Source: a bacterium (lineage in GTDB: Bacteria; Patescibacteriota; Microgenomatia; Curtissbacterales; GWA2-41-24). Taken from it: a DNA stretch of 64,000 nt. The stretch spans positions 107 to 64,106 of the forward strand of contig JAKALT010000005.1 of the NCBI GenBank assembly GCA_021813125.1, in the 5' to 3' direction. The position numbers and the translations under genes were made by a program. Shown one piece after another: positions 11,845 to 54,407 of the stretch; the stretch's first letter is position 1, and every line of letters starts with the position of its first letter. The notes beneath the pieces are model-generated. The model searched no databases and had not been told where the DNA came from. It saw only the letters and a program-made list of their open reading frames with translations.

Positions 11845-13491
11845 ATGTTATCTGATTCAATTACTAATGACTTGGTCATATCTTCACAACCTCTAATTCC
11901 CGCTTTATATTGTCGCGTTAGCACAGGTCGTCAGGAGAATGAAAAAACAATTGACAGTCAGATCGATGAAATTATTACTAAAGCTGTTGGTGACGGCACA
12001 GAGATCCGGTCCGATTTAAGGTTTGTTGATAATGGCTGGCCAGGAGAATTATTAGCGCGTCCAGCACTTGACCAGCTTAGGGATGCAGCAACACGAGGAG
12101 AATTCAATGCCTTATATGTTTATGATTTAGGCAGGTTATCGAGATCTTTTTTGGATCAACTAATTCTACTTAAGGAACTTCAAGATCTTGAGATCAAAAT
12201 CATCTCATTACACGACATTAATGCAGAAAATGATGAGCAGGTTTTTGCGAGAAATGTTATGGGTTTATTCCATGATTTCGAGCGGAAAAAAATTGCCGAA
12301 AGAATGAGGCGAGGGAAACTTTTTAAAGCTCGAAGTGGAACGCTGATTAATGGACAATCCTTATACGGGTTTAACTATATTAAAAAAACTGATACTGAAC
12401 CTGCGCGTTGTGAAATTAATAAAGAGGAGGCCAGAGTAATTAGAATGATTTTCGATTGGGTAGGGAAAGAAGGTGCATCAACTAGAGAAGTCATTAAAAG
12501 GCTTTATGATTTAGGAATTTCACCTAGAAAAGGTAAAACTACATTTTGGACCCATGGACCAATCGTAAGACTATTAAGGGAAGAATCTTATGTGTCTGGA
12601 TATATTTATTACAATAAAAGCGAGGCTGTTGTTGCTAAGAAGCCTCTTAAAAACATTAAATATAAAAAAATTAAAAGGGGTAGCCGTAGAATGCGGCCAA
12701 GGGAAGATTGGATACCTTTTCAGGTTCCTAAAATTATTGAAGATAGAAACCTTTTTGATAAAGTCCAAAGGTTAATAGAATATAACAAAAACTTTGCCTC
12801 TAAAAAAAGAAAATACGATTATTTGCTTTCGGGTATAGCTTTTTGTGAATGTGGTGCCAAAAGGGTAGGAGATGGAATCGATAAAGACAATTTTTATTAC
12901 CGATGCGCCGAAAGACTATATAGATTTCCTCTAGAGAAAAAGTGCCATTCAAAGGGTATTAATGCGGCAGTTTTGGATAAAGTATTTTGGAATGAACTAC
13001 TAAAGTTTATAAACAATCCATCATTGATTAGACAGGCTGCAGAAAATTGGCTTAGAGAATCTGGCGATAATGATAAGGATAGGTTAGAAAAGCAGGAGTT
13101 GACTGAATTTATAGCAAGGGTAGACGATGAGGAACAGCGTTATGCCAAAGCTTACGGCGCAGGAGCCTTGGATTTTGAAAAGTTCAAGGAATTGATGAGG
13201 GGCACGAAGAGGAAGAAGGATGGTTACCAGCAACAACTCGATAATCTGAATAATAAAATTGCTAATCAAGGGATAGACAGTATTCAATTAGATGAGGTTG
13301 TGGAAGAAGCAGGGAGGGTTTTTCAGTCTTTAGAGCTGCAAGACAAAAAACAAATTGTTCGGGATATAATAACTAAAGTCATCGTGAAAGGAGGGCTTGA
13401 GGTAGAAGTAAGGGGAAGAATCCCGCTTTTTCCCTCAAATATGGGATATGAACTTAAAGGTTGGAATAGTTGGGTTGCCAAATGTTGGTAA
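11845..13491 (+). CDS. Large serine recombinase (resolvase catalytic domain + recombinase domain + zinc-ribbon/coiled-coil)
   Basis: N-terminal ALYCRVSTGRQENEKTIDSQ (catalytic Ser), YVYDLGRLSRS, zinc-ribbon Cys cluster CECGAKR...YYRCAE...KKCHSKG, C-terminal coiled coil; its 3' end overlaps ychF by 44 bp. Confidence 0.85.
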   Translation: MLSDSITNDLVISSQPLIPALYCRVSTGRQENEKTIDSQIDEIITKAVGDGTEIRSDLRFVDNGWPGELLARPALDQLRDAATRGEFNALYVYDLGRLSRSFLDQLILLKELQDLEIKIISLHDINAENDEQVFARNVMGLFHDFERKKIAERMRRGKLFKARSGTLINGQSLYGFNYIKKTDTEPARCEINKEEARVIRMIFDWVGKEGASTREVIKRLYDLGISPRKGKTTFWTHGPIVRLLREESYVSGYIYYNKSEAVVAKKPLKNIKYKKIKRGSRRMRPREDWIPFQVPKIIEDRNLFDKVQRLIEYNKNFASKKRKYDYLLSGIAFCECGAKRVGDGIDKDNFYYRCAERLYRFPLEKKCHSKGINAAVLDKVFWNELLKFINNPSLIRQAAENWLRESGDNDKDRLEKQELTEFIARVDDEEQRYAKAYGAGALDFEKFKELMRGTKRKKDGYQQQLDNLNNKIANQGIDSIQLDEVVEEAGRVFQSLELQDKKQIVRDIITKVIVKGGLEVEVRGRIPLFPSNMGYELKGWNSWVAKCW

Positions 13492-19011: not shown

Positions 19012-19665
19012 ATGAAACTTTTTGTTTGGGATTTCCACGGAACGCTTGAGAAGGGAAACGAAAAAGCGGTTTTGGAGATAACGAATAAAATTCTTAGGGA
19101 CAGTGGCTACGACCGCCAAATGTCTGTAGATGAAAACTCAACTCTTTACGGTAAAAAATGGTATGAGTATTTTCAATATCTTTTGCCGAAGGAGAGTTTG
19201 GACAGGTGTCTGGATCTACAAAGAAAATGTGTGGAGTATGAAAATAAGCACCAGGATATTGTCAGAAATTTTATTAAACAAAATGATTATGCCAATGTGG
19301 TACTGTCAAAAATTAAAGATGCAGGTCACGACCAGATTTTAATTACCAATACTGCAAAAGTGGCCTTTATGATGTTTGTGCAAATTGTGGGGATAAGTGA
19401 GATTTTTCCAATCGGTAAGAAATCTTTTACTACAAATCTGCATCAAAAACATTCAACTTTAACTAAAAGGCAAGTTTTGGAAAATTATTTAAAAGGCAAA
19501 AATTTCAATAAAATTATTGTTGTAGGAGATAGGGGATCGGATGTTGAACTAGCCGGATTTGTGGGTGGAACTTCTTATTTATATGCGCACCCCGGAAAAG
19601 ATTTTTTTGAATGTCTCGCTGACTATAAAATCAGAGATTTAAGGAAAATTTTGGCAGAACTTTAA
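19012..19665 (+). CDS. HAD-superfamily hydrolase-like protein
   Basis: N-terminal motif I-like FVWDFHGTL and C-terminal VVGDRGSDVELA (motif IV-like). Confidence 0.45.
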   Translation: MKLFVWDFHGTLEKGNEKAVLEITNKILRDSGYDRQMSVDENSTLYGKKWYEYFQYLLPKESLDRCLDLQRKCVEYENKHQDIVRNFIKQNDYANVVLSKIKDAGHDQILITNTAKVAFMMFVQIVGISEIFPIGKKSFTTNLHQKHSTLTKRQVLENYLKGKNFNKIIVVGDRGSDVELAGFVGGTSYLYAHPGKDFFECLADYKIRDLRKILAEL

Positions 19666-19800
19666 TTAGTTTTAGGAGTTTTCTTTTAGAGTTTCTACGA
19701 TTTTTTCTAAATTACCATCCATAACGCCTGCTCTTCGATAAGGATAATGAGAAATAGGCCGAAGTAAGAATAGTGTTAAAAGGATAGCACATAATATTAG

Positions 19801-21252
19801 TTAGAATCCTCTTTGGTTAGGGGGCTTTAACTTAAAAATTTTAGTTTTATATCCGGAATATTCACCAATTATTTTTGAAGAAAGGGAGTTTTTTTCTAAA
19901 TATTGTTCTGTGTAATCAGGAAAAACAAACAAAGCGTTCAGGACAATGTAATCGGACGAATTTAGGATGCCTCTGTATTTATCAAGTTGTGTAGGGCCAG
20001 GCGGGAATTCGTAAAATTTTAAACCATTCTTGCCTCTTAATGCCAGATAAGGATCGGGAATTACGGACAAAAATACAGTGCTGTTTGGTTCAATGTTTTC
20101 CGAAATGTTTTTTGTGAAGCTGGCGAAGTTAAAATTACTGTTGTAGATAATCATTTTTGAAAAAATGATATTAAAGCTTATAAAGGCGATTATGAGGAGC
20201 AATGTGTAAATTCCTGTTTGTTTTATGATACCCGACTCTTCCTTTGCGTTTTTTAAAAGTGATATCAATATCAAGGCTAAAAAGGGTTGAAAGTAAAGAA
20301 AATACCATTGTTCTTTGCTGAAGATTACTGTGGTAGCAGAAATAATAAATCCTGCAAGAAGGAAGTAATTTTTTAAGCTGCGATTTTTATAGACATGGAG
20401 TGCAAAAATGAATAAAGCGATTAAACATAAAATGATTAAAATTTGCCATTGTCCGTCACCCCATCTATGTAATACCCAAGATTTTACAGCTGCTTTTTTA
20501 GCAAGATGCATTTGCATTTGCGCTATGAAAATATTTAATGTTTTTATAATTGTCAAAAACCATATTACAAAACCTAATGCTACAGGGAGCGAGAAAAATA
20601 ATATTGCATTAACTTTTTCCCGAAATTTTATACTGGAAAGTAAAATTGATAAAGCAATTATTGCCGGTGCAAGAAGCGCAATTACATGAGACAAGATAGC
20701 CAGTGAACAAAAAATGCCGCTACAGAGGTAGAGTTTTTTGTTTGTTGAGTTTAAGGCATTTAGAATGATTAAAAATGAGCATAGGATGAAAAAGAATGCA
20801 AGGATATCCATTCTTCCAATTCTTGATGACTGGTTGAAGTTGGGATCAATGGAAAGTAATAAGGTGGCCAAAGTTGCGTAATAATAGGTGTTGAAAATAT
20901 GTTTTGCGATCAAAAAGAAAACTGCAAGCGAAAAAATTCCTAGTAGTAACGACAGTGCCCTAACGGCAATTATTGAGGTTCCAAAAGTGTTAGTCCAGAT
21001 TGAGAGGAAATAGGAATACATTGGAGGTTGCCAAACTGCATATTGCGACATTCCTGGAATTGTATCCTTAAACAGAATGGTCGAAAAAGTACCTTTAGTA
21101 GAAAAGTTATTTGCAATATCCAAAAATATGCCTTCATCTGGCCAGGGCAGGGGGTCTTTAAGATATAAGAGGCTTGAGAATATTAAAAATGGGGTTATTG
21201 CCAATAGGAAAAGCAGTACAATCTTGATTTTCTCTTGCCATTTTTGAGCCAT
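19801..21252 (-). CDS. ArnT/PMT-like (GT-C fold) integral membrane glycosyltransferase
   Basis: 483 aa, ~12 predicted TM helices, GT83/GT39-like N-terminal region (GRMDILAFFFIL, ...). Confidence 0.5.
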   Translation of the reverse strand: MAQKWQEKIKIVLLFLLAITPFLIFSSLLYLKDPLPWPDEGIFLDIANNFSTKGTFSTILFKDTIPGMSQYAVWQPPMYSYFLSIWTNTFGTSIIAVRALSLLLGIFSLAVFFLIAKHIFNTYYYATLATLLLSIDPNFNQSSRIGRMDILAFFFILCSFLIILNALNSTNKKLYLCSGIFCSLAILSHVIALLAPAIIALSILLSSIKFREKVNAILFFSLPVALGFVIWFLTIIKTLNIFIAQMQMHLAKKAAVKSWVLHRWGDGQWQILIILCLIALFIFALHVYKNRSLKNYFLLAGFIISATTVIFSKEQWYFLYFQPFLALILISLLKNAKEESGIIKQTGIYTLLLIIAFISFNIIFSKMIIYNSNFNFASFTKNISENIEPNSTVFLSVIPDPYLALRGKNGLKFYEFPPGPTQLDKYRGILNSSDYIVLNALFVFPDYTEQYLEKNSLSSKIIGEYSGYKTKIFKLKPPNQRGF

Positions 21253-21367: not shown

Positions 21368-22288
21368 TTATTGGCTCTTTGGTTCGGTTTTTAAAGTATC
21401 GAAGATTTTTTCTAAATTACCATCCATAACACCTGCGATGTTGCCCCAGGATTTGCCAATTCGGTGATCTGTTACCCTGTCTTGCGGAAAGTTGTAGGTG
21501 CGGATTTTTTCACTGCGGTCACCGGTTCCAAGTTGTGTTGATCTGGATGCTGAAAGTTCCTGGTGAGTACGTTCTTCTTCCAAAGCGAACAATCGGGCAC
21601 GCAAGATTTCCATGGCGATTTCGCGGTTTTGGGCTTGGGACCTTTCCGTTTGAGCTTTGACAACAATGCCTGTTGGGATGTGTTTAATACGGACTGCCGT
21701 TGACACTTTGTTGACGTTCTGGCCGCCGTGGCCACCAGACCGGAAAGCTTCAAATTCAATATCTGCAGGACTTATAACTACTTCTGTCTGGCCGACTTCT
21801 GCTAAGACTGCAACAGTTGCAGTTGAGGTGTGAATACGGCCGGAAGATTCTGTTTTTGGAACGCGCTGTACCCTATGGACACCGGATTCAAATTTCAGTT
21901 TATCCCAAACATTTTTACCGCTTACCTTGTAAACAACCTCTTTTATGTTTCCGATTCCGCCTTCGTTTTTGTCCAGTTCATCGACTCGCCAGTTTTGGGA
22001 AGCAGCGTATTTGGTGTACATGCGGGCAAGATCACCTGCAAAAAGCCCGGCTTCATCGCCGCCGGCTGCAGCCCGGATTTCCAAAATTACGGAGTTTGCA
22101 CCCGGTTGCCCTTCCACAACTTCCGGTTTCTGGTAAAGCGCATTTTCAAGCTGGTTTTTTTGCTCTGTCAGATTTTTAATTTCTTCAGCGGCCAGATCTG
22201 CCATAGAAGGATCTGAAGCAGCTAGGTTTTCTGCATCTTTGATTTTTAATTCCAGATCTTCGATTTGTTTTTTCAGATAATCGCTCAT
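21368..22288 (-). CDS. prfA: Peptide chain release factor 1
   Basis: GGQ motif SGGHGGQNVNKVSTAVRIKH; RVQRVPKTESSGRIHTS (P-x-T type tripeptide region, RF1-like). Confidence 0.8.
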   Translation of the reverse strand: MSDYLKKQIEDLELKIKDAENLAASDPSMADLAAEEIKNLTEQKNQLENALYQKPEVVEGQPGANSVILEIRAAAGGDEAGLFAGDLARMYTKYAASQNWRVDELDKNEGGIGNIKEVVYKVSGKNVWDKLKFESGVHRVQRVPKTESSGRIHTSTATVAVLAEVGQTEVVISPADIEFEAFRSGGHGGQNVNKVSTAVRIKHIPTGIVVKAQTERSQAQNREIAMEILRARLFALEEERTHQELSASRSTQLGTGDRSEKIRTYNFPQDRVTDHRIGKSWGNIAGVMDGNLEKIFDTLKTEPKSQ

Positions 22289-24510: not shown

Positions 24511-25305
24511 TTACAATAATGGTTTTAGAATTTCTATTGCACCCAAAGCTGTTCGAATTGCACGATCAACACTTATCCGAGCTTTTTTAGTATTTAGGTG
24601 GGTTCCAGGAATTGAGAACCTAAATTGATTCTTGACAATTTGATCTAGTGGTTCCGGATTGTAGTTTACGGCAAGAACCGCACCGGAAAGTACGTTTCGC
24701 ATTGTTGATATCAAAAAAAGCGGTGCACATTCCATTTCTGAAGACAACAGGGGATAGTCCCATTTTTTCATTCTTGGGTTTAAATATAGTTGTCCCCATC
24801 TTTTAAAATTTGATGACTTGCCATAAAATGCATCGTGCGTTCTGTTAATTCCGACGTAATAAGGAAATTTTTGGTTTTTTGCACTTTGTTCAAGAGCCTG
24901 GATAACTTTATAGTTGGCGACTGCTGGAAATTCTGGAGGCATATATTCTTTTGTAGTCCCTTCCTCTCTTATTGAAGCTGTTGGAATAATTACTGATCCG
25001 ACTTTAATTTCTTTTTTTAAAGCGCCACCACATGTACCTACCCGAATTAAAATTTTAACGCCTAAATTTATGAGTTCTTCTGTGGCAATAGCAGTTGAGG
25101 GACTTCCGATTCCAGTAGATGTGACCGTGATTTTTATAGCACTGTAGTATCCAGTGTAAGTTACAAACTCACGGTTGCTGGCGACAAGTATTGATTTCTT
25201 AAGATATTTCTGAGCTATTAATTTTGCCCTCTCAGGGTCGCCTGGTAGCAGGACAATTTTTGAAATATCTTGTGGTGAGCATAAAATGTGAGGTTGTTTT
25301 ATCAT
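24511..25305 (-). CDS. Nucleoside phosphorylase (PNP/UDP family)
   Basis: VLLPGDPERAKLIA, TGIGSPSTAIATEELI, IRVGTCGG. Confidence 0.7.
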   Translation of the reverse strand: MIKQPHILCSPQDISKIVLLPGDPERAKLIAQKYLKKSILVASNREFVTYTGYYSAIKITVTSTGIGSPSTAIATEELINLGVKILIRVGTCGGALKKEIKVGSVIIPTASIREEGTTKEYMPPEFPAVANYKVIQALEQSAKNQKFPYYVGINRTHDAFYGKSSNFKRWGQLYLNPRMKKWDYPLLSSEMECAPLFLISTMRNVLSGAVLAVNYNPEPLDQIVKNQFRFSIPGTHLNTKKARISVDRAIRTALGAIEILKPLL

Positions 25306-26213
25306 TTTCCCTCCTGAATTATTTGCTCAATTAAATAGAAAGCCCCATCGGCAATTGTTTTGTTTTGTGGTGCTACAAGACCGTTTGTTTCTGCGATAAT
25401 TTTTTTGTAAGCATCTGTTGCATTGCCAACCGCACAATTAGTTACTATCCTACCAAGATTTTGCATCGAATCGTTTTCGGTATCACCAATCATGTAATAT
25501 CTCAAGTCTTGTGGGAAACTTTCTATAAACAATTGCACTGCTTTCCATTTTTGAATTTTTGGATTTTTTACCAGACAGCTGCCGATTTGAGGGTAACTTT
25601 TAACTATCATTTTTTGGCTAGGTGGTAGTATTTTTTCTACTTCTTGAACGAATAGTGCTTTTGTTTCCTCAGTCTTTTGAACATCAATCGATAATATTCC
25701 GTTGTTGTCGGATTGCCTTATATATATTCCAAGACTTTCTTCTCTCGCAGAGTTGATTAAATATATAGTTTTGTTTTTTTCATTAATATTTTTTGTTGTT
25801 TGTATGTAAGGTGTGGCGTTTAGCCGGTAAACAACAACGTTTGGTTTTTGATTTAGCTGATTTTCAATACTGTTTGTAAGGTTTTGAAAAAATTGTGCTC
25901 GGCTTTCTTCTGTATAGAGTTTTATATTTTGTTGTGGAAGGTATATGTATGCTCCGTTTTCGGCGATAACAGGTGAGTTTGCATCAAATTGTTCAGCATA
26001 CTGGGAAAGTGCGATGCTGCCCGTGTCAGAAACTAAAACAACCCAATATCCTGCTTGCTTTGCACTTTGGATTATTTCCAGTTTGCTTTTATTGGGTGGA
26101 GTAAAGTTGTTATTTTCATCAAGCCAGACTCCGTCGACATCAGAAAATATAATCCCTTTTTCGGGTTCGCCAATTATTTCCCGCAGGTTAACTGTCCGAA
26201 CTAGCTCTATCAT
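25302..26213 (-). CDS. HAD-IIB (Cof-like) phosphatase
   Basis: Motif I FSDVDGV, motif IV MIGDTENDSMQ. Confidence 0.55.
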   Translation of the reverse strand: MIELVRTVNLREIIGEPEKGIIFSDVDGVWLDENNNFTPPNKSKLEIIQSAKQAGYWVVLVSDTGSIALSQYAEQFDANSPVIAENGAYIYLPQQNIKLYTEESRAQFFQNLTNSIENQLNQKPNVVVYRLNATPYIQTTKNINEKNKTIYLINSAREESLGIYIRQSDNNGILSIDVQKTEETKALFVQEVEKILPPSQKMIVKSYPQIGSCLVKNPKIQKWKAVQLFIESFPQDLRYYMIGDTENDSMQNLGRIVTNCAVGNATDAYKKIIAETNGLVAPQNKTIADGAFYLIEQIIQEGK

Positions 26214-27091
26214 ACTTGCCTGAACCTTTCTAAAAACTCTTGTAGTTGTTTTGGATTTTTAAAATATTTTTCAGCGTAAGAAATTTTTGTTTCATCGTAT
26301 TTTGCGTCTGAACTTATAAGACAGGAAAGGCTGTTTATCGGAGGATTTTTTGCGTAATTTCCTTTTAGTGCGAGACTTGTTATCGATTGATTTATATCTT
26401 CGCTTAGGTACGCACCAAATACGCAAATCCAACTAGCAGTTACTATATTGGATTCGTAATCTATTAACTTAAGCTTGAAGGCAAGAGTGTCGATAGTTTG
26501 TCCAGATGCAATAACGTCATCAACAATTACGATGTTTTTTGGAAGTTGATCTGGGAGATTTCCGTAATCGATTTTCAGGTCAAATCTCCCAGGTTTTATT
26601 TTTATTCTAGTAGTGGGCAAATAAACAGCCTTAGAAATGTCAAGAAATTCTTCTGCACTTTTTATGTACTCACTTACAACGCGAGCTCCGTTTCCAGGGA
26701 AAATATATAGAGGGTTTTCTATTCGAAGATTTTTTATCAAGCTAACTAATGCTCCGGTTTGTTTTCTTGCATCGACAACCTGGACCGTGCTTTGGGAGAT
26801 TTCATTTAATGCCCTGACCTGATTGTTTAATTCCTCATTACTTCTTTGGCCTAGTGGATTTACATCTTGGATTATTATTGAACCATCAACTAAGCATGCC
26901 TGAGCAAAATTTATTTCAGTGTATGCTTCCGAAAAAGCACAGGACACTGACATACTTGGTACTAAATCTGAGAGATCTGGCCTTACTTTAAACAAGAGTC
27001 GGACATCTTGAGCGTCAAAATCTCTTTCTCCTTTGCCAAGAAATTTTTGCCTGTCTTTTGGCCAATATATTTGTGATAGATTTCTTTCCAT
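26210..27091 (-). CDS. Phosphoribosyltransferase-domain protein
   Basis: PRPP-binding motif NIVIVDDVIASGQT. Confidence 0.6.
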   Translation of the reverse strand: MERNLSQIYWPKDRQKFLGKGERDFDAQDVRLLFKVRPDLSDLVPSMSVSCAFSEAYTEINFAQACLVDGSIIIQDVNPLGQRSNEELNNQVRALNEISQSTVQVVDARKQTGALVSLIKNLRIENPLYIFPGNGARVVSEYIKSAEEFLDISKAVYLPTTRIKIKPGRFDLKIDYGNLPDQLPKNIVIVDDVIASGQTIDTLAFKLKLIDYESNIVTASWICVFGAYLSEDINQSITSLALKGNYAKNPPINSLSCLISSDAKYDETKISYAEKYFKNPKQLQEFLERFRQV

Positions 27092-27104
27092 GGTTTTTCT
27101 CCAT

Positions 27105-27128
27105 TAAAAAACCCGCCGATTTGGCGGG
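27105..27128 (-). terminator. Rho-independent terminator (minus strand) after the yerC-like gene
   Basis: Minus-strand reading cccgccaaatcggcggg + tttttt. Confidence 0.6.
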
Positions 27129-27212
27129 GTGAGTTTCTAAAATTTGCTAGGTTAAATCACTCCGCCTTAGGTGGGGAGTTGTGATGATTTATCTTGATTT
27201 CTTTTTTGTTTT

Positions 27213-31544: not shown

Positions 31545-32123
31545 CTATTTGGCAATTTCCAGAAGGCTTTCGAGGGCGATTGGAAGCTGGGTAGTGCCTG
31601 TTGAGCCCGAGAAATGGCCCATATTGTGTTCTACAATGATTTTGGAATTGAGTTTATCGTGGAAGTCATCCTGATTGTCCAGAGGAACGTATGGGTCGTT
31701 GTCGGAAAAGATGGCAACACTTTTAGTTAATATATTTTTCACTTTATCAAAGTCAAGCGAAGTTGTAAGCCAGGGATTTGCGATTTCTTTTGCCTCTTCG
31801 CCTTCCAATTTTGTTAATCTTTTGAAAAAACCGGCGACAAAGACGGCTCCGCCAACTTTTGTATCGGCAGGCAGGGTGTCGAGGTAACGGGCAATGGTAG
31901 AACAACCGATACTGTGGCCAACAAAATAAGTATTTTCGTCGGCGGTTCCAACTGTGTTGGCAAGAGCCGTGACCCAAGGTTCAATTTTTGGAATTTCCGG
32001 TTCGGGTAATTGGGGAACAGTGACTTGGAAGCCTTTTTGCTTAAGCTGGCTTTTTAACCACGGAAACCAACCCTCTTCGGGATAGCCGTCCCAACCATGA
32101 ACTATGATAACACGTTTTTGCAT
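31545..32123 (-). CDS. Alpha/beta hydrolase (RBBP9/YdeN-like serine hydrolase)
   Basis: RVIIVHGWDGYPEEGWFPWL, nucleophile elbow FVGHSIGCS; start at MQKRV (32123) because the longer ORF-track N-terminus overlaps the tRNA. Confidence 0.6.
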   Translation of the reverse strand: MQKRVIIVHGWDGYPEEGWFPWLKSQLKQKGFQVTVPQLPEPEIPKIEPWVTALANTVGTADENTYFVGHSIGCSTIARYLDTLPADTKVGGAVFVAGFFKRLTKLEGEEAKEIANPWLTTSLDFDKVKNILTKSVAIFSDNDPYVPLDNQDDFHDKLNSKIIVEHNMGHFSGSTGTTQLPIALESLLEIAK

Positions 32124-32128
32124 ATTAG

Positions 32129-32213
32129 TGGCCGGGGAGGGAGTCGAACCCTCACGGGCGTTAAGCCCATACGTTTTTGAGACGTAACTGTCTACCAGTT
32201 CCAGCACCCGGCC
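32129..32213 (-). tRNA. tRNA-Leu (anticodon CAA), long variable arm, CCA not encoded
   Basis: Minus-strand read: ggccggg tg ctggaactggtagacag t tacgt-CTCAAaa-acgta tgggcttaacgcccgt gagggTTCGActccctc cccggcc a. Confidence 0.8.
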
Positions 32214-33734: not shown

Positions 33735-34292
33735 ATGATTTCCGTTACAGAACTTAGGGCTGGCACCGTTTTTGAGGAACAGGGAAAATATTTTCTTGTA
33801 CTCACGTATGAACACATTAAGGTTGCGCGCGGTTCGGGAACCGTAAAAGTTAAAGTCCAGAATTTAGAAAGCGGTGCAAATATTGAAAAATCTTTCCAGA
33901 CAGGGGCCAGGGTTCAAGATACCGTTGTAGACCGCAGGAAAGTCCAATATTTATACACAGACGATAAAATTCATGTAATGGACATGGAAACTTATGAGCA
34001 GTTTGAACTGGACAGGAAACTGGCCGAAGATCTTTCTAAATATTTAAAAGAAGGTTTGGAAATTACGCTATTTTCAGTAGAAGGAAAGCCATTGTACTTG
34101 GAAATTCCCAAAATTGTTGATTATAAAGTGGCTCAAACCGGGGGATCTGCTCGGGGCAATACTGTAGGCGCAAGTTACAAGGATGCGGTTATGGAAAACG
34201 GTTTGGTTGTGAAAGTTCCGCTATTTATCAAAAACGGCGAAGTGATTCGGGTGGATACCAGGAGTGGTGATTACGTCGAGAGAGCAAAGTAA
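33735..34292 (+). CDS. efp: Elongation factor P
   Basis: MISVTELRAGTVFEEQGKYFLVLTYEHIKVARGSGTVKVKVQNLESG...; Arg at the position of the normally modified Lys (KVARGSG). Confidence 0.95.
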   Translation: MISVTELRAGTVFEEQGKYFLVLTYEHIKVARGSGTVKVKVQNLESGANIEKSFQTGARVQDTVVDRRKVQYLYTDDKIHVMDMETYEQFELDRKLAEDLSKYLKEGLEITLFSVEGKPLYLEIPKIVDYKVAQTGGSARGNTVGASYKDAVMENGLVVKVPLFIKNGEVIRVDTRSGDYVERAK

Positions 34293-35327
34293 TCAGGGAT
34301 TTGTTGCGTAAAGTGATTCAGCAAGTTTTATCAGGTCTTTTTTTGGATAACTACCCATTTGTTCACCCGCTGGTATGACTCTGATTTGAATTATTATTCC
34401 GTTGCGGTAAATTCTTAATTCCTTATCCAGGTTGTTCTGTTCGAGAATATTAATTGCTGGATAATCATTAATCTTCATTTCTTCCAATTGGATATTGTAT
34501 GATGGTCCTTCAAATTGCTGATATCTTTTTAATTCTGCAAGATCGTGACTAAAGAGCTCGGTGTCTGAAAAGTTTTTAACTGGTTTGAGTTCTCTTATAT
34601 CAAGTTCATCATCCTGATTATTTCTGAATCCTCTCTGATTGTCGAGCCACCAGCCTTCGTAACTTAACCAGCTGAAATCTATGCCGTTAACACTTCTGTA
34701 GGGTTTGAGAGTCTTATTATTTCTATTGTCATTGGTCATATTGAAAATCATTTTTTTGTTAGCAAACGTTCCGTAATTTGAATCGTATAGGGGCATACCA
34801 CTTTCTTTGATTATGACCTGTTCTCTTTTTGCCCCGGCTTTTTGGGCATTTCTTGTTGTAATACTTTTTACTGAGGCAATAGTTGGTATGAGTGCAGAAA
34901 TAATAACGACAAGAATGAGAGAAAATGCAACTGGGAGTTCTTGGAAAAAAACAGGAATTGATGCAGAGAAGGGAACTGTTATCACGAAGACAGCAATTAA
35001 AAAGAAACCTGCTGCGATGCATCCAAGTTCTTCGCAAGTGTAGCTGACATAAAGTGTAGCTAAAGTCAGAAGGATCAAAATTACAAAAAATATTGAGAGT
35101 ACTGTGAATTTAGCCCGCGATTGGTAGGCTGCTATTGATAGGAGATAACCTACAAATACAGCAATTATCATAGGCAGAATAAAAACCTGTAATGCTCCTT
35201 TCAGCATTGACGAATTAAAAAAATTTATTCCGATAATGCTATTTAGGATAAGGATCGTAGCAAAGGATAAGACACAACCTACAAAGTAGATAACTGTACT
35301 TTTTAAAATATTGCCGTTGTTTCCCAT
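34293..35327 (-). CDS. Hypothetical polytopic membrane protein with C-terminal soluble domain
   Basis: 344-aa ORF, ~6 TM helices; lies between efp and a displaced copy of the efp 3' end. Confidence 0.45.
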   Translation of the reverse strand: MGNNGNILKSTVIYFVGCVLSFATILILNSIIGINFFNSSMLKGALQVFILPMIIAVFVGYLLSIAAYQSRAKFTVLSIFFVILILLTLATLYVSYTCEELGCIAAGFFLIAVFVITVPFSASIPVFFQELPVAFSLILVVIISALIPTIASVKSITTRNAQKAGAKREQVIIKESGMPLYDSNYGTFANKKMIFNMTNDNRNNKTLKPYRSVNGIDFSWLSYEGWWLDNQRGFRNNQDDELDIRELKPVKNFSDTELFSHDLAELKRYQQFEGPSYNIQLEEMKINDYPAINILEQNNLDKELRIYRNGIIIQIRVIPAGEQMGSYPKKDLIKLAESLYATNP

Positions 35328-35420
35328 CTAGTCTGTCCTAATAAGAATATAGCACAAAAGGAATTAGAAATTTGCGGCGAAGGCTTGGGCGAGATGGCAA
35401 GGTCGCCGAGACGAAAACTA

Positions 35421-35467
35421 TCTGGGTTGATACCAGAAACGGGGATTATGTTGAGAGAGCGAAGTAA
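35421..35467 (+). pseudogene. Displaced/duplicated 3' fragment of efp (encodes ...IWVDTRNGDYVERAK*)
   Basis: tctgggttgataccagaaacggggattatgttgagagagcgaagtaa vs efp 34246..34292 attcgggtggataccaggagtggtgattacgtcgagagagcaaagtaa; same reading frame, same terminal 8 aa. Confidence 0.7.
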
Positions 35468-35502
35468 ACTCCAAGTTCCAAACTCCAAAACCCAATTTTA
35501 AT

Positions 35503-35982
35503 TTATCTGTAAGCGAGGACGGTTGTTATGTTACTTGGGCCACCAAGAGCAAAGAGAACTAAAAGTCCAACTATAACTACTTGTGTAACCAAGCCCCAAG
35601 GAAGCTGCATACGGGATTGCAGTTTGTGGCCGAGGTAATCCATCCAGGAAAATGGTGGAACCTTAAAATTAAACATCCAGCTTGGAGCTTCAAGCCAATC
35701 AGGAAGCTGAGCCGAGATTACCATTGTAAGTAGATAAACGGGTTTTTCAAATGCCAAACCCCTAAAAAGAATTGCAACCAGTGCAAAGCCTAAAAGAACG
35801 TCGAGCACTGCTTCTATTTTCAGCCTGAAAGCGGTTTTATTTCGGTGGTTTGTGCCGGCATCCCAATGGGGAACAAGATCTGCTAAAAAGTGAGACGCGA
35901 TAGCAAGTGGGATTCCGATTACGGGATTGGTGATTTTTGCGGCCAGACTTGCCCCAATTAATGCATGTGAAGTTGCCGTCAT
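35503..35982 (-). CDS. Membrane-bound metal-dependent hydrolase (DUF457/YdjM-like)
   Basis: MTATSHALIGASLAAKITNPVIGIPLAIASHFLADLVPHWD. Confidence 0.5.
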   Translation of the reverse strand: MTATSHALIGASLAAKITNPVIGIPLAIASHFLADLVPHWDAGTNHRNKTAFRLKIEAVLDVLLGFALVAILFRGLAFEKPVYLLTMVISAQLPDWLEAPSWMFNFKVPPFSWMDYLGHKLQSRMQLPWGLVTQVVIVGLLVLFALGGPSNITTVLAYR

Positions 35983-45526: not shown

Positions 45527-45572
45527 AATGAGATCTACAAATCCATCCTAAATTCCAAGCCCCATTTTTTGG
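45527..45572 (-). pseudogene. Displaced duplicate of the GNAT gene 3' end (minus strand encodes KKWGLEFRMDL*)
   Basis: 36-bp identity tacaaatccatcctaaattccaagccccattttttg with 45797..45832. Confidence 0.7.
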
Positions 45573-45576
45573 GAAC

Positions 45577-45783
45577 TTACTTTTTAGAATTAGGGAGAGA
45601 TTTTTGCAAATATTTATCTGCCAAGAACATTACAATCATTGCAACAATTACTGCAAACGAAAGTGCACCGTAAGATTGAGCTGGTTCTAATTTGGGGAGC
45701 AGAATACTAAATACCCACATCACTACTACCATGGTTATCCAACCGATAAGCAAATCAATGATAAGTCTCATTAAGTTCTTCAT
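45577..45783 (-). CDS. Small 2-TM membrane protein (68 aa) between the GNAT gene and its duplicated 3' end
   Basis: MKNLMRLIIDLLIGWITMVVVMWVFSILLPKLEPAQSYGALSFAVIVAMIVMFLADKYL... Confidence 0.45.
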   Translation of the reverse strand: MKNLMRLIIDLLIGWITMVVVMWVFSILLPKLEPAQSYGALSFAVIVAMIVMFLADKYLQKSLPNSKK

Positions 45784-45795
45784 AGTTTTAAATTA

Positions 45796-46224
45796 TTACA
45801 AATCCATCCTAAATTCCAAGCCCCATTTTTTGAAGCCTAATTTTTCGTAGAGCTTGTGTGCGTCGGTGCGGTCGGTCCCGGATGTGAAGAGGATTTTATA
45901 GCAGTTTCTGGCACGGGCAAGTTCGAAAATTTTATCAAACATTTTTGTGCCGATACCCTGGCCGCGGGTGGACTCATCGACCACCAAACCTTCCAATAAG
46001 GCATAAGGGCGACTCCTAATTGGTACTTCTATATAATATATGGCGGCTGTTGCTGCGACTTTTCCAGATTCATCCCTGGCTACCAAGACATCACAGGTAT
46101 CGTCGGCAAGCTGTTTTTCTAAAGCATCTCTTGCTCCGTCTGCAATTTTTTCGGTGCGGTAAATTTGGGTTTGAAGATTTAAGATTGCGTCGATGTCAGC
46201 AGGTGTTGCGATTGCTATTTCCAT
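45796..46224 (-). CDS. GNAT-family N-acetyltransferase
   Basis: LVVDESTRGQGIGTKMFDKIFELARARNCYKILFTS; start at MEIAIATP (46224) rather than the long ORF-track extension. Confidence 0.75.
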   Translation of the reverse strand: MEIAIATPADIDAILNLQTQIYRTEKIADGARDALEKQLADDTCDVLVARDESGKVAATAAIYYIEVPIRSRPYALLEGLVVDESTRGQGIGTKMFDKIFELARARNCYKILFTSGTDRTDAHKLYEKLGFKKWGLEFRMDL

Positions 46225-51228: not shown

Positions 51229-51232
51229 TATT

Positions 51233-51301
51233 AAGTGATAAGTGATAAGTGATAAGTGATAAGTGATAAGTGATAAGTGATAAGTGATAAGTGATAAGTG
51301 A
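51233..51301. repeat. Heptanucleotide microsatellite (GTGATAA)x~9.5
   Basis: ttaagtgataagtgataagtgataag...gtgagg; a degenerate partial copy (gataagtgataagtaaaaagtgataag) lies at 51691..51718. Confidence 0.9.
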
Positions 51302-52102
51302 GGCCTATAGTATCTATAAGGGAAGAGGTAAATTTTAGTCTTTTTTCTTCTAAAATGGAAAAACTCCCAGCCACAAATTAGCTTCAAATATTTTTCAAGA
51401 AAAAGTGGGGATAGAAGAGATGGGGAAGAGGAATGGGTGATATAGTGTGATATAGTTATAGTTTTGCGAAATCGTGAAAAAGGGTAACGTGAAAATTACA
51501 GAACTATGTAAATTCCCGCATTTAAACATAAATAAATATGTATGGATGCACTGGAAGGACAGAGGACTATAAGGCTTCTACTCTACGTAAGAAAGTCTTA
51601 CATTTCTCATTGGCATGCCGACAAGTTAATTGCTAAAAGGTTAAAAAGTGCCGTTTTAGGCTTTTTTGGGGAAGGGCCATTTTTGAAGCGATAAGTGATA
51701 AGTAAAAAGTGATAAGTTATTTTATTCTTTTATAATTTTCCTCCCTATATTCCCCATGGTGGGGGCCAATTTCCTATTAGCTACTGCGTCGCACAATGAT
51801 ACTTTTGCGACGCGAGGTGAAGCTGAGAGAGGGGGTCGAGTTTATCAACGTTTCGAATATTTGCTGAGTTTCTTATTTTTAACTTTTTGTAATTTCTCTG
51901 CTTTTTCATTTTTCCCCGTTTTTTCATCGCAGATCAATTTCGATCCACTTATCCCCTTTTGATTATAAATAGTTCTTTTTAGGGTTAGATTGATTAGAAT
52001 TGATCCACAAGCAGTAGCCCATTTATCATCTATGTTTATAAAAAGCCGTTTTAGGGGCTATCAGCGGCTCGGCGTGGCTAAAATGTGGCTAAATATAGGT
52101 AA

Positions 52103-53477: not shown

Positions 53478-54407
53478 ATGGATCTGCCTGCCCTGGTTGG
53501 CGAATTTTTAGAATATTGCGAAATTGAACGAAACCTTTCCCCTCTTACGATACGCGATTACCGGCATTATTTGGAATTTTTTTGTGAATGGTCTAAAGCT
53601 AACTCCCCTATTTTGAGACCTCAGGATTTAACTTTGGAGGTTGTACGCAAATATCGTGTTTATTTAGCCCATTACAACAGTCCAAACGGTAATTTACCCA
53701 TTAAAAAGGTAACGCAGAATTATTATGTTATTGCACTAAGATCTTTTCTGCGGTATTTGGTCAAAAAAGATTTGAAAGTAGTAACGCCTGACAAAATAGA
53801 GCTTCCAAAAACGGAATCGAGGTCCCTTAAGTTTTTGGACCGTGACCAGTTGGACAGGCTTTTGGGGCAACCGGATGTCTCAAAAGAACGAGGGTTGCGG
53901 GATAAAGCTTTAATGGAGATGTTGTTTTCGACAGGGCTTAGGGTTTCGGAGCTGTGCAGGCTTAACCGAGATCAGGTAAATTTGGAAAGGCGCGAGTTTG
54001 GGGTAATAGGTAAAGGGGGCAGGGCGCGGGTAGTTTTTCTTTCGGACAGAGCCTGTTTGTGGCTTGAGCGTTATCTTTCCAAAAGAAGCGATTCTTTTGG
54101 GCCGCTTTTTATCCGCTATTCGGGGAATATGGATCCGACTGTGAATGGAGAAAAAATGAGGCTAACTCCCCGGTCCGTGCAGCGGCTGGTTGATAAGTAT
54201 GTGCGGAAAGCTCGTTTGCCCGTCAAGGCTTCCCCGCATGTTTTGCGGCATTCGTTTGCAACAGACCTTTTGATGAACGGTGCCGATTTGAGATCGGTTC
54301 AGGAACTTTTGGGGCACAAAAACGTGGCTACAACGCAAATTTATACCCACGTTACCAACGCGCAGCTTAAGGACGTCCATAAGTCGTTTCATAGCGGGAA
54401 CAAATAA
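53478..54407 (+). CDS. XerC/XerD-family tyrosine site-specific recombinase
   Basis: RDKALMEMLFSTGLRVSELCRL, HVLRHSFATDLLMNGADLRSVQELLGHKNVATTQIYTHV (R-H-R-Y catalytic set). Confidence 0.9.
   Translation: MDLPALVGEFLEYCEIERNLSPLTIRDYRHYLEFFCEWSKANSPILRPQDLTLEVVRKYRVYLAHYNSPNGNLPIKKVTQNYYVIALRSFLRYLVKKDLKVVTPDKIELPKTESRSLKFLDRDQLDRLLGQPDVSKERGLRDKALMEMLFSTGLRVSELCRLNRDQVNLERREFGVIGKGGRARVVFLSDRACLWLERYLSKRSDSFGPLFIRYSGNMDPTVNGEKMRLTPRSVQRLVDKYVRKARLPVKASPHVLRHSFATDLLMNGADLRSVQELLGHKNVATTQIYTHVTNAQLKDVHKSFHSGNK

Follow-up and report, generated by a model that had tools for sequence, protein, structure and literature searches.

How did the 3' end of efp, the gene for elongation factor P (EF-P), come to stand twice in the genome of a Candidatus Curtissbacteria bacterium (candidate phyla radiation [CPR]/Patescibacteria), on either side of a single membrane-protein gene? 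The question is raised by a 64,000-nucleotide (nt) stretch of contig JAKALT010000005.1 (assembly GCA_021813125.1), here called the window. In it, an intact efp abuts a gene that we term X, and a second efp end lies between X and the conserved membrane-protein gene Y. We consider it probable that this repeat is a recombination scar, left when one gene was acquired horizontally from an X-bearing donor by an X-less recipient in an event of the type known as homology-facilitated illegitimate recombination (HFIR). On the plus strand, the order is efp, X, the X upstream region, a stub of Y (Y'), a stub of efp (efp'), the native spacer, and Y; relatives are designated by L numbers, and an asterisk denotes a stop codon.

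33735-34292, plus strand: efp, 185 amino acids (aa), intact; assigned from its open reading frame (ORF) and NCBIfam TIGR00038.
34293-35327, minus strand: X, 344 aa, the putatively acquired cargo; an ORF with no family assignment.
35328-35363, minus strand: X upstream region, which would have arrived with X; collinear with L097 and L107.
35364-35417, minus strand: Y' remnant, probably the last ~54 nt of a foreign Y copy; from local alignment to the 3' end of L097 Y.
35418-35423, no strand: illegitimate joint between presumed donor Y' (~54 nt before its stop codon) and presumed recipient efp (~47 nt before its stop codon).
35424-35467, plus strand: efp' remnant, VDTRNGDYVERAK*, probably the displaced native efp end; matches 34249-34292 in the same frame and ends in TAA.
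35468-35502, no strand: native efp-Y spacer; aligns, with indels, to the 43-nt efp-Y spacer of L179.
35503-35982, minus strand: Y, a 159-aa conserved membrane protein and native convergent neighbor of efp; tail-to-tail orthologs are present in 49 of 79 loci.

The efp product matched the TIGR00038 efp equivalog profile of NCBIfam with 192.6 bits (cutoff, 185.8), and its C terminus reads ...IRVDTRSGDYVERAK*. The first copy of the repeat comprises the last ~47 nt of this gene (34246-34292) and is contiguous with X. The second copy, the efp' stub, lies 1175 nt downstream of the current efp end and is no longer part of any gene. A repeat search returned the pair 34249-34292 and 35424-35467 as the top direct repeat of the 4-kb region, with identity at 36 of 44 nt (82%). 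Over the 47 nt delimited in the original prediction, which was made from the window alone, 37 positions are identical, and alignment of longer spans showed that identity drops toward approximately chance upstream of the repeat start. Both copies are in frame and TAA terminated (VDTRSGDYVERAK versus VDTRNGDYVERAK). When the final 14 aa and the stop codon of each ORF in the window were scanned against all six frames, the efp stub scored 61 and was surpassed only by a tandem paralog pair; the remaining genes scored at most 40, mostly 27 to 34, and the best score in shuffled 1-kb sequences never exceeded 22. The predicted recurrence of the efp end, in the same frame and with the same stop codon, was thus confirmed, as were its similarity beyond chance and the presence of one 344-aa gene on the opposite strand between the copies (34293-35327).

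Seven of the eight nucleotide differences between the copies fall at third codon positions, with a single residue change (S/N), a bias for which we calculated a binomial P value of ~0.003. This argues that each copy evolved as the end of a functional efp, and in a lineage different from that of the other. With 36/44 identities, moreover, the copies resemble each other no more than either resembles the efp ends of other Curtissbacteria species (28 to 38/44), which points to two lineages rather than to a duplication in place. The two efp ends would, on this evidence, have evolved under selection in separate lineages and been brought together later. A direct repeat alone would also be compatible with in-place tandem duplication of the efp end and later insertion of X, or with a chimera assembled from two strains. 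However, an unselected copy drifting in place would not show the third-position pattern, whereas the supposedly unselected copy shows differences at synonymous sites almost exclusively and has kept its frame and stop codon. In addition, duplication and chimerism alike leave the Y' stub and the collinearity with L097 unexplained. Finally, at least four independent assemblies, ERZ27237563 and ERZ27237541 (ENA), GCA_027346405.1 (NCBI), and SRR13300764 (Logan), have this locus without a single base difference; they come from different samples and different assemblers, so that an assembly artifact is excluded. We regard local duplication or chimerism as barely credible.

What lies at the far end of the insert is a piece of a second Y. 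Collinearity with L097 extends over 35318-35417, a segment that covers the start codon of X, the region upstream of X, and the final ~54 nt of Y, and the X-upstream regions of the window, L097, and L107 have a block in common that reads TAATAA.AAT.TAGCACAA. Alignment of 35364-35417 to the 3' end of L097 Y scored 58, compared to a null of 16.3 +/- 2.8 with a maximum of 31 in 1000 shuffles. The remnant carries a 1-nt deletion and ends in ...AQAFAANF*. The Y proteins of the X-bearing lineages and of L016 have a C terminus of this type (AANF*/AAGF*), while the window's own Y ends in ...TTVLAYR*. Homology to Y stops at 35417, and homology to efp is clear from 35424, possibly from 35419-35421. Since Y' and efp' derive from the 3' ends of two different genes that lie on opposite strands, the joint between them is illegitimate, and the Y' stub would mark its donor side. 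With a Y' stub at the insert end, the incoming DNA is best understood as a same-locus stretch of another Curtissbacteria chromosome, and not as an element with ends of its own. A weak terminator-like hairpin on the minus strand (35421-35437; 5-bp stem and T-rich tail) spans the joint and lies downstream of Y on its strand; it is probably due to chance, the whole scan not being above shuffled expectation.

Which side of the joint is native, and which came from the donor? We compared 79 Curtissbacteria loci holding both efp and Y. In 49 of these, the two genes stand tail to tail, with <60 nt between their stop codons and without X, and the arrangement in the window is consequently not common to all relatives. 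The nearest relatives by genes on both flanks, L177, L179, L104, L099, and L014, all lack X. X-less relatives share 82 to 89% identity with the window in EF-P and 81 to 87% in Y, compared to 73 to 79% and 71 to 78%, respectively, for the more distant X-bearing genomes. The flanking genes, i.e., those encoding a NIF3-like protein, LGT, a DksA-like protein, and an Na/H exchanger, as well as efp and Y themselves, are closest to X-less genomes. The near relative L179 represents an empty site: its EF-P is 88% and its Y 87% identical to that of the window (85% for L099 Y), its Y ends in GNITTVLAYR* (SNITTVLAYR* in the window), and its spacer also matches. L177 has a different, 127-aa gene between efp and Y, without a stub. 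Y itself gave only a subthreshold Pfam match to YdjM (E = 0.04). Identity of either efp end to every relative is 28 to 38/44, which does not tell the native from the donor end; the assignment was made from context, namely, the L179 spacer and Y C terminus together with the affinity of the flanking genes.

Flanks of the X-less type, a Y' stub of the X-bearing type, a natively placed efp' stub, and an efp/X boundary of the donor type together argue that an X-less genome received an X-bearing segment, and it is the paired stubs that give the direction of transfer. The structure alone, one illegitimate joint between two haplotypes, is symmetrical, and the reverse course of events can be envisaged, in which X had always been present in the lineage and X-less DNA entered from the direction of Y; in that case, the foreign parts would be the efp' stub and the full Y, and the Y' stub would be native. 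That a stub may be foreign in some events is suggested by the efp remnant of L117, which, with its GC-rich codons and ERVK* ending, is unlike the efp of the same locus. However, the genes on both flanks and the five nearest relatives all side with the X-less genomes, the Y' stub matches in type the Y ends of distant lineages that carry X, and many losses of X would be needed. We therefore give very little credence to a transfer in the reverse direction.

Gene X, the presumed cargo, encodes approximately five N-terminal transmembrane helices and a C-terminal alpha/beta domain. Its stop codon directly abuts that of efp, with zero gap. No match of X was found in Pfam or NCBIfam, toxin and immunity families included, and no relative was detected in viral contigs. 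Only 5 relatives were found among 5.8 billion proteins, and one more in metagenome contigs (L107). The AlphaFold model has an overall predicted local distance difference test score of 63 (70 to 90 in the C-terminal domain), and in this medium-quality model the only fold hint, a weak one, was to TiME/DcrB/PsbP-like proteins (E = 2e-3; TM score, 0.27 to 0.42). With a GC content of 35.9%, X lies below the gene mean (41.3 +/- 4.2%), as would suit an accessory gene. A promoter and terminator scan around X gave nothing above shuffled expectation. In line with the proposal that the inserted gene be sought elsewhere with the same flanks, X homologs with 43 to 58% identity were found at the same place in L094, L096, L097, and L107; all relatives with enough context (these same four) stand between efp and Y in the same orientation, and each has kept the zero gap between efp and X. 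The efp/X boundary in the window is hence of the donor type, which places the homologous anchor in or upstream of efp. No efp stub was found within the 43 to 81 nt separating X from Y in L094, L096, and L097.

These observations can be arranged into the following course of events. In the ancestor, efp and Y would have stood tail to tail, as in most relatives. The cell would have taken up a chromosome piece from a more distant Curtissbacteria lineage with X between efp and Y, a piece that started within or upstream of efp, included the stop codon of efp and X with its upstream region, and stopped ~54 nt into the donor Y, counted from the 3' end. One side would have been fixed by a homologous crossover in or upstream of efp, which we infer, and the other by the illegitimate joint to the recipient efp ~47 nt before its stop codon, which can be read in the window. 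The outcome would be an intact efp with a donor-supplied 3' end, followed by X, the donor Y' stub, and the recipient's displaced efp end, the latter still attached to the native spacer and Y. Both stubs would be nonfunctional leftovers. To this extent, the prediction that inserted DNA supplied a replacement efp 3' end was borne out, with the old end kept beside its original neighbor Y. That the event was HFIR of DNA taken up by transformation is suggested by the shape of the product and by what is known of CPR bacteria. HFIR is defined by one homologous and one illegitimate end (PMC3240628), and displaced 3' ends in Vibrio cholerae type VI secretion system (T6SS) and Rhs loci have been attributed to it (PMC5361080). 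The com genes are conserved in CPR bacteria, Saccharibacteria have been shown to be naturally transformable (PMC10633639), and the gene transfers detected into Patescibacteria have, for the most part, other Patescibacteria as their source (PMC12455944). On these grounds, DNA uptake by transformation in CPR bacteria is plausible.

The original prediction had gone further and seen in the repeat the attL/attR-like signature of an integrating element. In this explanation, X would be what remains of an integrative element whose attP carried an efp 3' end and whose integrase was lost or acted in trans. Direct repeats of a gene 3' end around an insert are indeed the classic att picture, familiar from phages and integrative and conjugative elements (ICEs) that target the 3' ends of tRNA or protein genes and restore them from attP; here, as there, 3'-end repeats stand on both sides and the incoming copy keeps the target gene intact. 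The window also contains, elsewhere, a serine recombinase (11845-13491) and a putative Xer-like ORF (53478-54407), and the empty site in relatives would suit an integrating element, although it does not discriminate between the models. Unlike in such elements, however, no recombinase lies in or beside the insert, which holds X alone, without a Pfam or NCBIfam match, between efp and Y. Moreover, a conserved core is missing: no perfect run between the copies exceeds 8 to 9 nt, and the mismatches are evenly spread. What terminates the insert is a stub of the chromosomal neighbor Y, not element DNA, and X has no viral or element relatives. Junctions also vary between events, with the joint of L107 at about -66 and no Y' stub beside X, compared to -47 and a Y' stub in the window, and L094, L096, and L097 carry X without any repeat. 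The claim of an att-type signature is therefore not supported, and site-specific integration appears very unlikely. A transposon or insertion sequence with target-site duplication was also considered and rejected, as no transposase was present and the duplication measures 44 to 47 nt at only 82% identity. The best inverted repeat (26 nt, 77%) lies inside X.

Alternatively, a 1175-nt circle holding an efp end, X, and the Y' stub might have inserted in the manner of Campbell, by a single crossover in the efp homology, leaving two hybrid copies. Such an insertion would yield exactly the observed product and account for the short repeat. On the other hand, the efp homology extends over only 44 to 47 nt at ~80% identity with no longer perfect run than that given above, and homology this short and diverged is far below the normal need of RecA-type recombination. 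The differences between the efp copies are evenly spread without a switch point, and formation of the circle needs an extra illegitimate step anyway. For the efp locus we judge this route unlikely.

A repeat that does look like the product of a crossover within it, and in this respect favors the circle, is found at prfA. The original prediction had seen the pattern of efp again at prfA and at a GNAT gene, and the first of these parallels holds, as a glycosyltransferase gene separates prfA from a second copy of its last ~66 nt. On the minus strand, prfA is followed by this gene and then by the prfA stub, which stands tail to tail with a HAD hydrolase gene.

21368-22288, minus strand: prfA.
19801-21252, minus strand: gene for a PMT-family (PMT_2) glycosyltransferase, 483 aa.
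19672-19737, minus strand: prfA stub, AGVMDGNLEKIVETLKENS*, ~66 nt.
19012-19665, plus strand: HAD hydrolase gene.

Unlike in the efp repeat, the first 33 nt of the prfA repeat are identical at 32 positions and the remainder is diverged, a pattern suggestive of crossing over within the repeat or of gene conversion at a later time. In L174 and L176, prfA is followed directly by a VTT-domain gene, with neither the HAD nor the PMT gene, and in L172, prfA is convergent with the HAD gene, after which the PMT gene follows. A remnant of the HAD gene was looked for beside the prfA stub, and none was found. A PMT-like 3' stub at 27104-27148 (protein score, 40) was rejected, with a nucleotide score of 24 against a null of 20.6 +/- 3.5; it overlaps a terminator-like hairpin.

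The second parallel did not hold. At the "GNAT" gene, a perfect direct repeat of 36 nt (45536-45571 and 45797-45832) flanks a 68-aa membrane ORF (45577-45783, minus strand). The repeat is intergenic, starting 29 nt past the stop codon of a 138-aa gene, and encodes no gene end. The 138-aa gene has no Pfam match, so that its name is unconfirmed. The event behind this repeat is different from that at efp and probably much younger.

Is the efp/Y junction of the window an isolated case? At least 10 different inserts were found at this junction across Curtissbacteria, making it an insertion hotspot and a recurrent entry point. Besides X and the 127-aa gene of L177, these include a 149-aa ORF in L016, a 300-aa ORF in L019, and inserts of 170 to 1350 nt in several metagenome lineages. 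In Daviesbacteria-like outgroups, the junction holds a gene of ~295 aa, taken from its sequence motifs to be galU-like. Stubs of efp occur in four independent haplotypes.

Window: 47 nt.
L107: ~66 nt, NG*VIRVDTRSGDYVERAK*, with an in-frame stop codon; differs from its own efp almost only at third positions.
L117/L122/L123: 63 nt, KSGERIRVDTRIGQYVERVK, with GC-rich codons and an ERVK ending.
L116/L118/L119: 27 nt.

The scars of L107 are nested. In the reverse complement of this locus (~2184-4015), efp is followed by X, the 40-nt X upstream region joined straight to the efp' stub, a 46-nt spacer, a Y' stub, a 570-nt insert, and the full Y. The 570-nt insert contains a 75-aa ORF and is bounded by a ~55-nt imperfect direct repeat (TGGGTGTTTACA...); the relic Y' stub was displaced by this second insert, which supplied a new Y end. 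In L117/L122/L123, efp and Y are 173 nt apart, with ~105 nt, including a hairpin, between the stub and the resident AT-rich efp (...ERSKA*). The ERVK* ending is typical of Daviesbacteria-like efp, and in these loci the stub may be the foreign part, no cargo gene having been gained. Together with the prfA stub of the window, these scars, which arose independently of one another, lend support to the acquisition of X by HFIR.

Several points weigh against the acquisition of X by HFIR as set out above. The donor is absent from the databases, with the best X match only 58% identical. The homologous crossover was not located: since all relatives are only 74 to 79% identical in efp nucleotides, no mosaic boundary is visible. 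In a sliding-window comparison of efp, L014-L019, L094-L097, L099, L104, L177, and L179 were all 66 to 79% identical and showed no switch, being too diverged to show one. Likewise, the closest proxies for donor and recipient are too diverged to reveal microhomology at the joint. HFIR experiments usually delete recipient DNA instead of keeping it duplicated, and, to our knowledge, neither transformation nor HFIR has ever been shown in Curtissbacteria. Finally, the six scars (four of efp, one of Y, and one of prfA) all leave remnants of ~27 to 66 nt, a length range that random illegitimate joints would not obviously give.

This uniform length is also the hint of positional preference that could be adduced for site-specific integration. 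The plain readings on offer are survivorship, in which long direct repeats delete the insert again, or trimming by deletion. A bolder reading, suggested by stubs in a tighter range than random illegitimate joints would lead one to expect, is that CPR bacteria have a regular, recombinase-independent route by which single genes enter the last 30 to 70 nt of conserved genes where two genes converge, with a fresh end supplied each time by the incoming DNA. We regard the existence of such a route as doubtful.

How does the locus compare with known systems? HFIR has been described for natural transformation of Acinetobacter baylyi, Streptococcus pneumoniae, and Pseudomonas stutzeri and for E. coli conjugation (PMC3240628). 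In common with these cases, the foreign DNA at efp would owe its fixation to a homologous anchor on one side, in a conserved gene, and to an illegitimate joint on the other, with a novel junction of unrelated sequences as the result and no need for a recombinase gene. Unlike these cases, which are known from laboratory crosses, the event at efp is deduced from a product found in nature, in a CPR bacterium that has not been cultivated; its anchor crossover cannot be seen, and recipient sequence was kept as a duplicate instead of being deleted. A second likeness is to Rhs and contact-dependent inhibition (CDI) loci and to the T6SS effector-immunity loci of V. cholerae (PMC5361080), where an incoming module brings a new 3' end and orphans the old one downstream, and where repeated events build arrays comparable to the nested stubs of L107. 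There, however, the 3' ends are variable toxins and the cargo is a selected immunity gene, whereas the stubs described here represent the same conserved housekeeping peptide (of efp or prfA) and have no use, the gene brought in being an unrelated one for a membrane protein.

Several further features of the window stand apart from the efp locus. Near its start, three copies with 88 to 90% identity (21-151, 1753-1836, and 4966-5096) encode a conserved ~45-aa peptide (...VPYLDFDFSF.(A/V)PKPRY.RIIT.RD.FG.I.(H/R)SK...). Copies 1 and 3 are each closely preceded by a stop codon, and copy 2 runs into the following 605-aa ORF. Among the copies lie genes for a Zeta-toxin-like protein, a TIR_2 protein, and a 995-aa HEAT-like protein, with the large serine recombinase (11845-13491) further on, and every assembly of the strain breaks just upstream of this triple repeat. 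A block at 24511-27091, comprising PNP_UDP_1 and Hydrolase_3 genes and a 293-aa ORF, has a GC content at third codon positions of 28 to 30% (gene mean, 38%) and lies between a Trp-repressor-like gene and hisS; it is absent in L172, L174, and L176, in which the latter two genes are direct or near neighbors. Two tandem giant ORFs (54556-57696, 1046 aa, and 57740-60709, 989 aa) have in common a 354-nt 3' end with 89% identity (57342-57695 and 60355-60708), representing either paralogy with a homogenized C terminus or another end replacement. The only tRNA in the window, tRNA-Leu(CAA) (32128-32213, minus strand), overlaps the mechanically called start of ORF 31545-32207, the real start of which is probably the internal MQKRVIIVHGW.... 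The segment 51229-51755 comprises 527 nt without an ORF, and a tandem array with a 7-nt period in it (~51232-51301) matches a second site at 51686-51720. At the gathering threshold, no Rfam family match was found anywhere in the 64 kb.

The efp locus is a natural and well-resolved case of a known class of recombination products and not a new kind of system, and, as far as could be found, such a product has not been described before in Curtissbacteria. Its value is one of method and natural history rather than of concept, the class of mechanism being already known. It offers a readable natural record of how an uncultivated CPR bacterium with a small genome would have gained an accessory membrane-protein gene: from a donor of the same class-level group and the same chromosomal address, with an anchor in a conserved housekeeping gene and no mobile element. 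Should the narrow range of stub lengths reflect a positional rule and not survivorship, it would point to an undescribed mechanism or constraint on the gain of accessory genes in streamlined genomes. If displaced gene ends of this kind are common, a systematic scan for them could date and count transformation-type gene gains in CPR bacteria.

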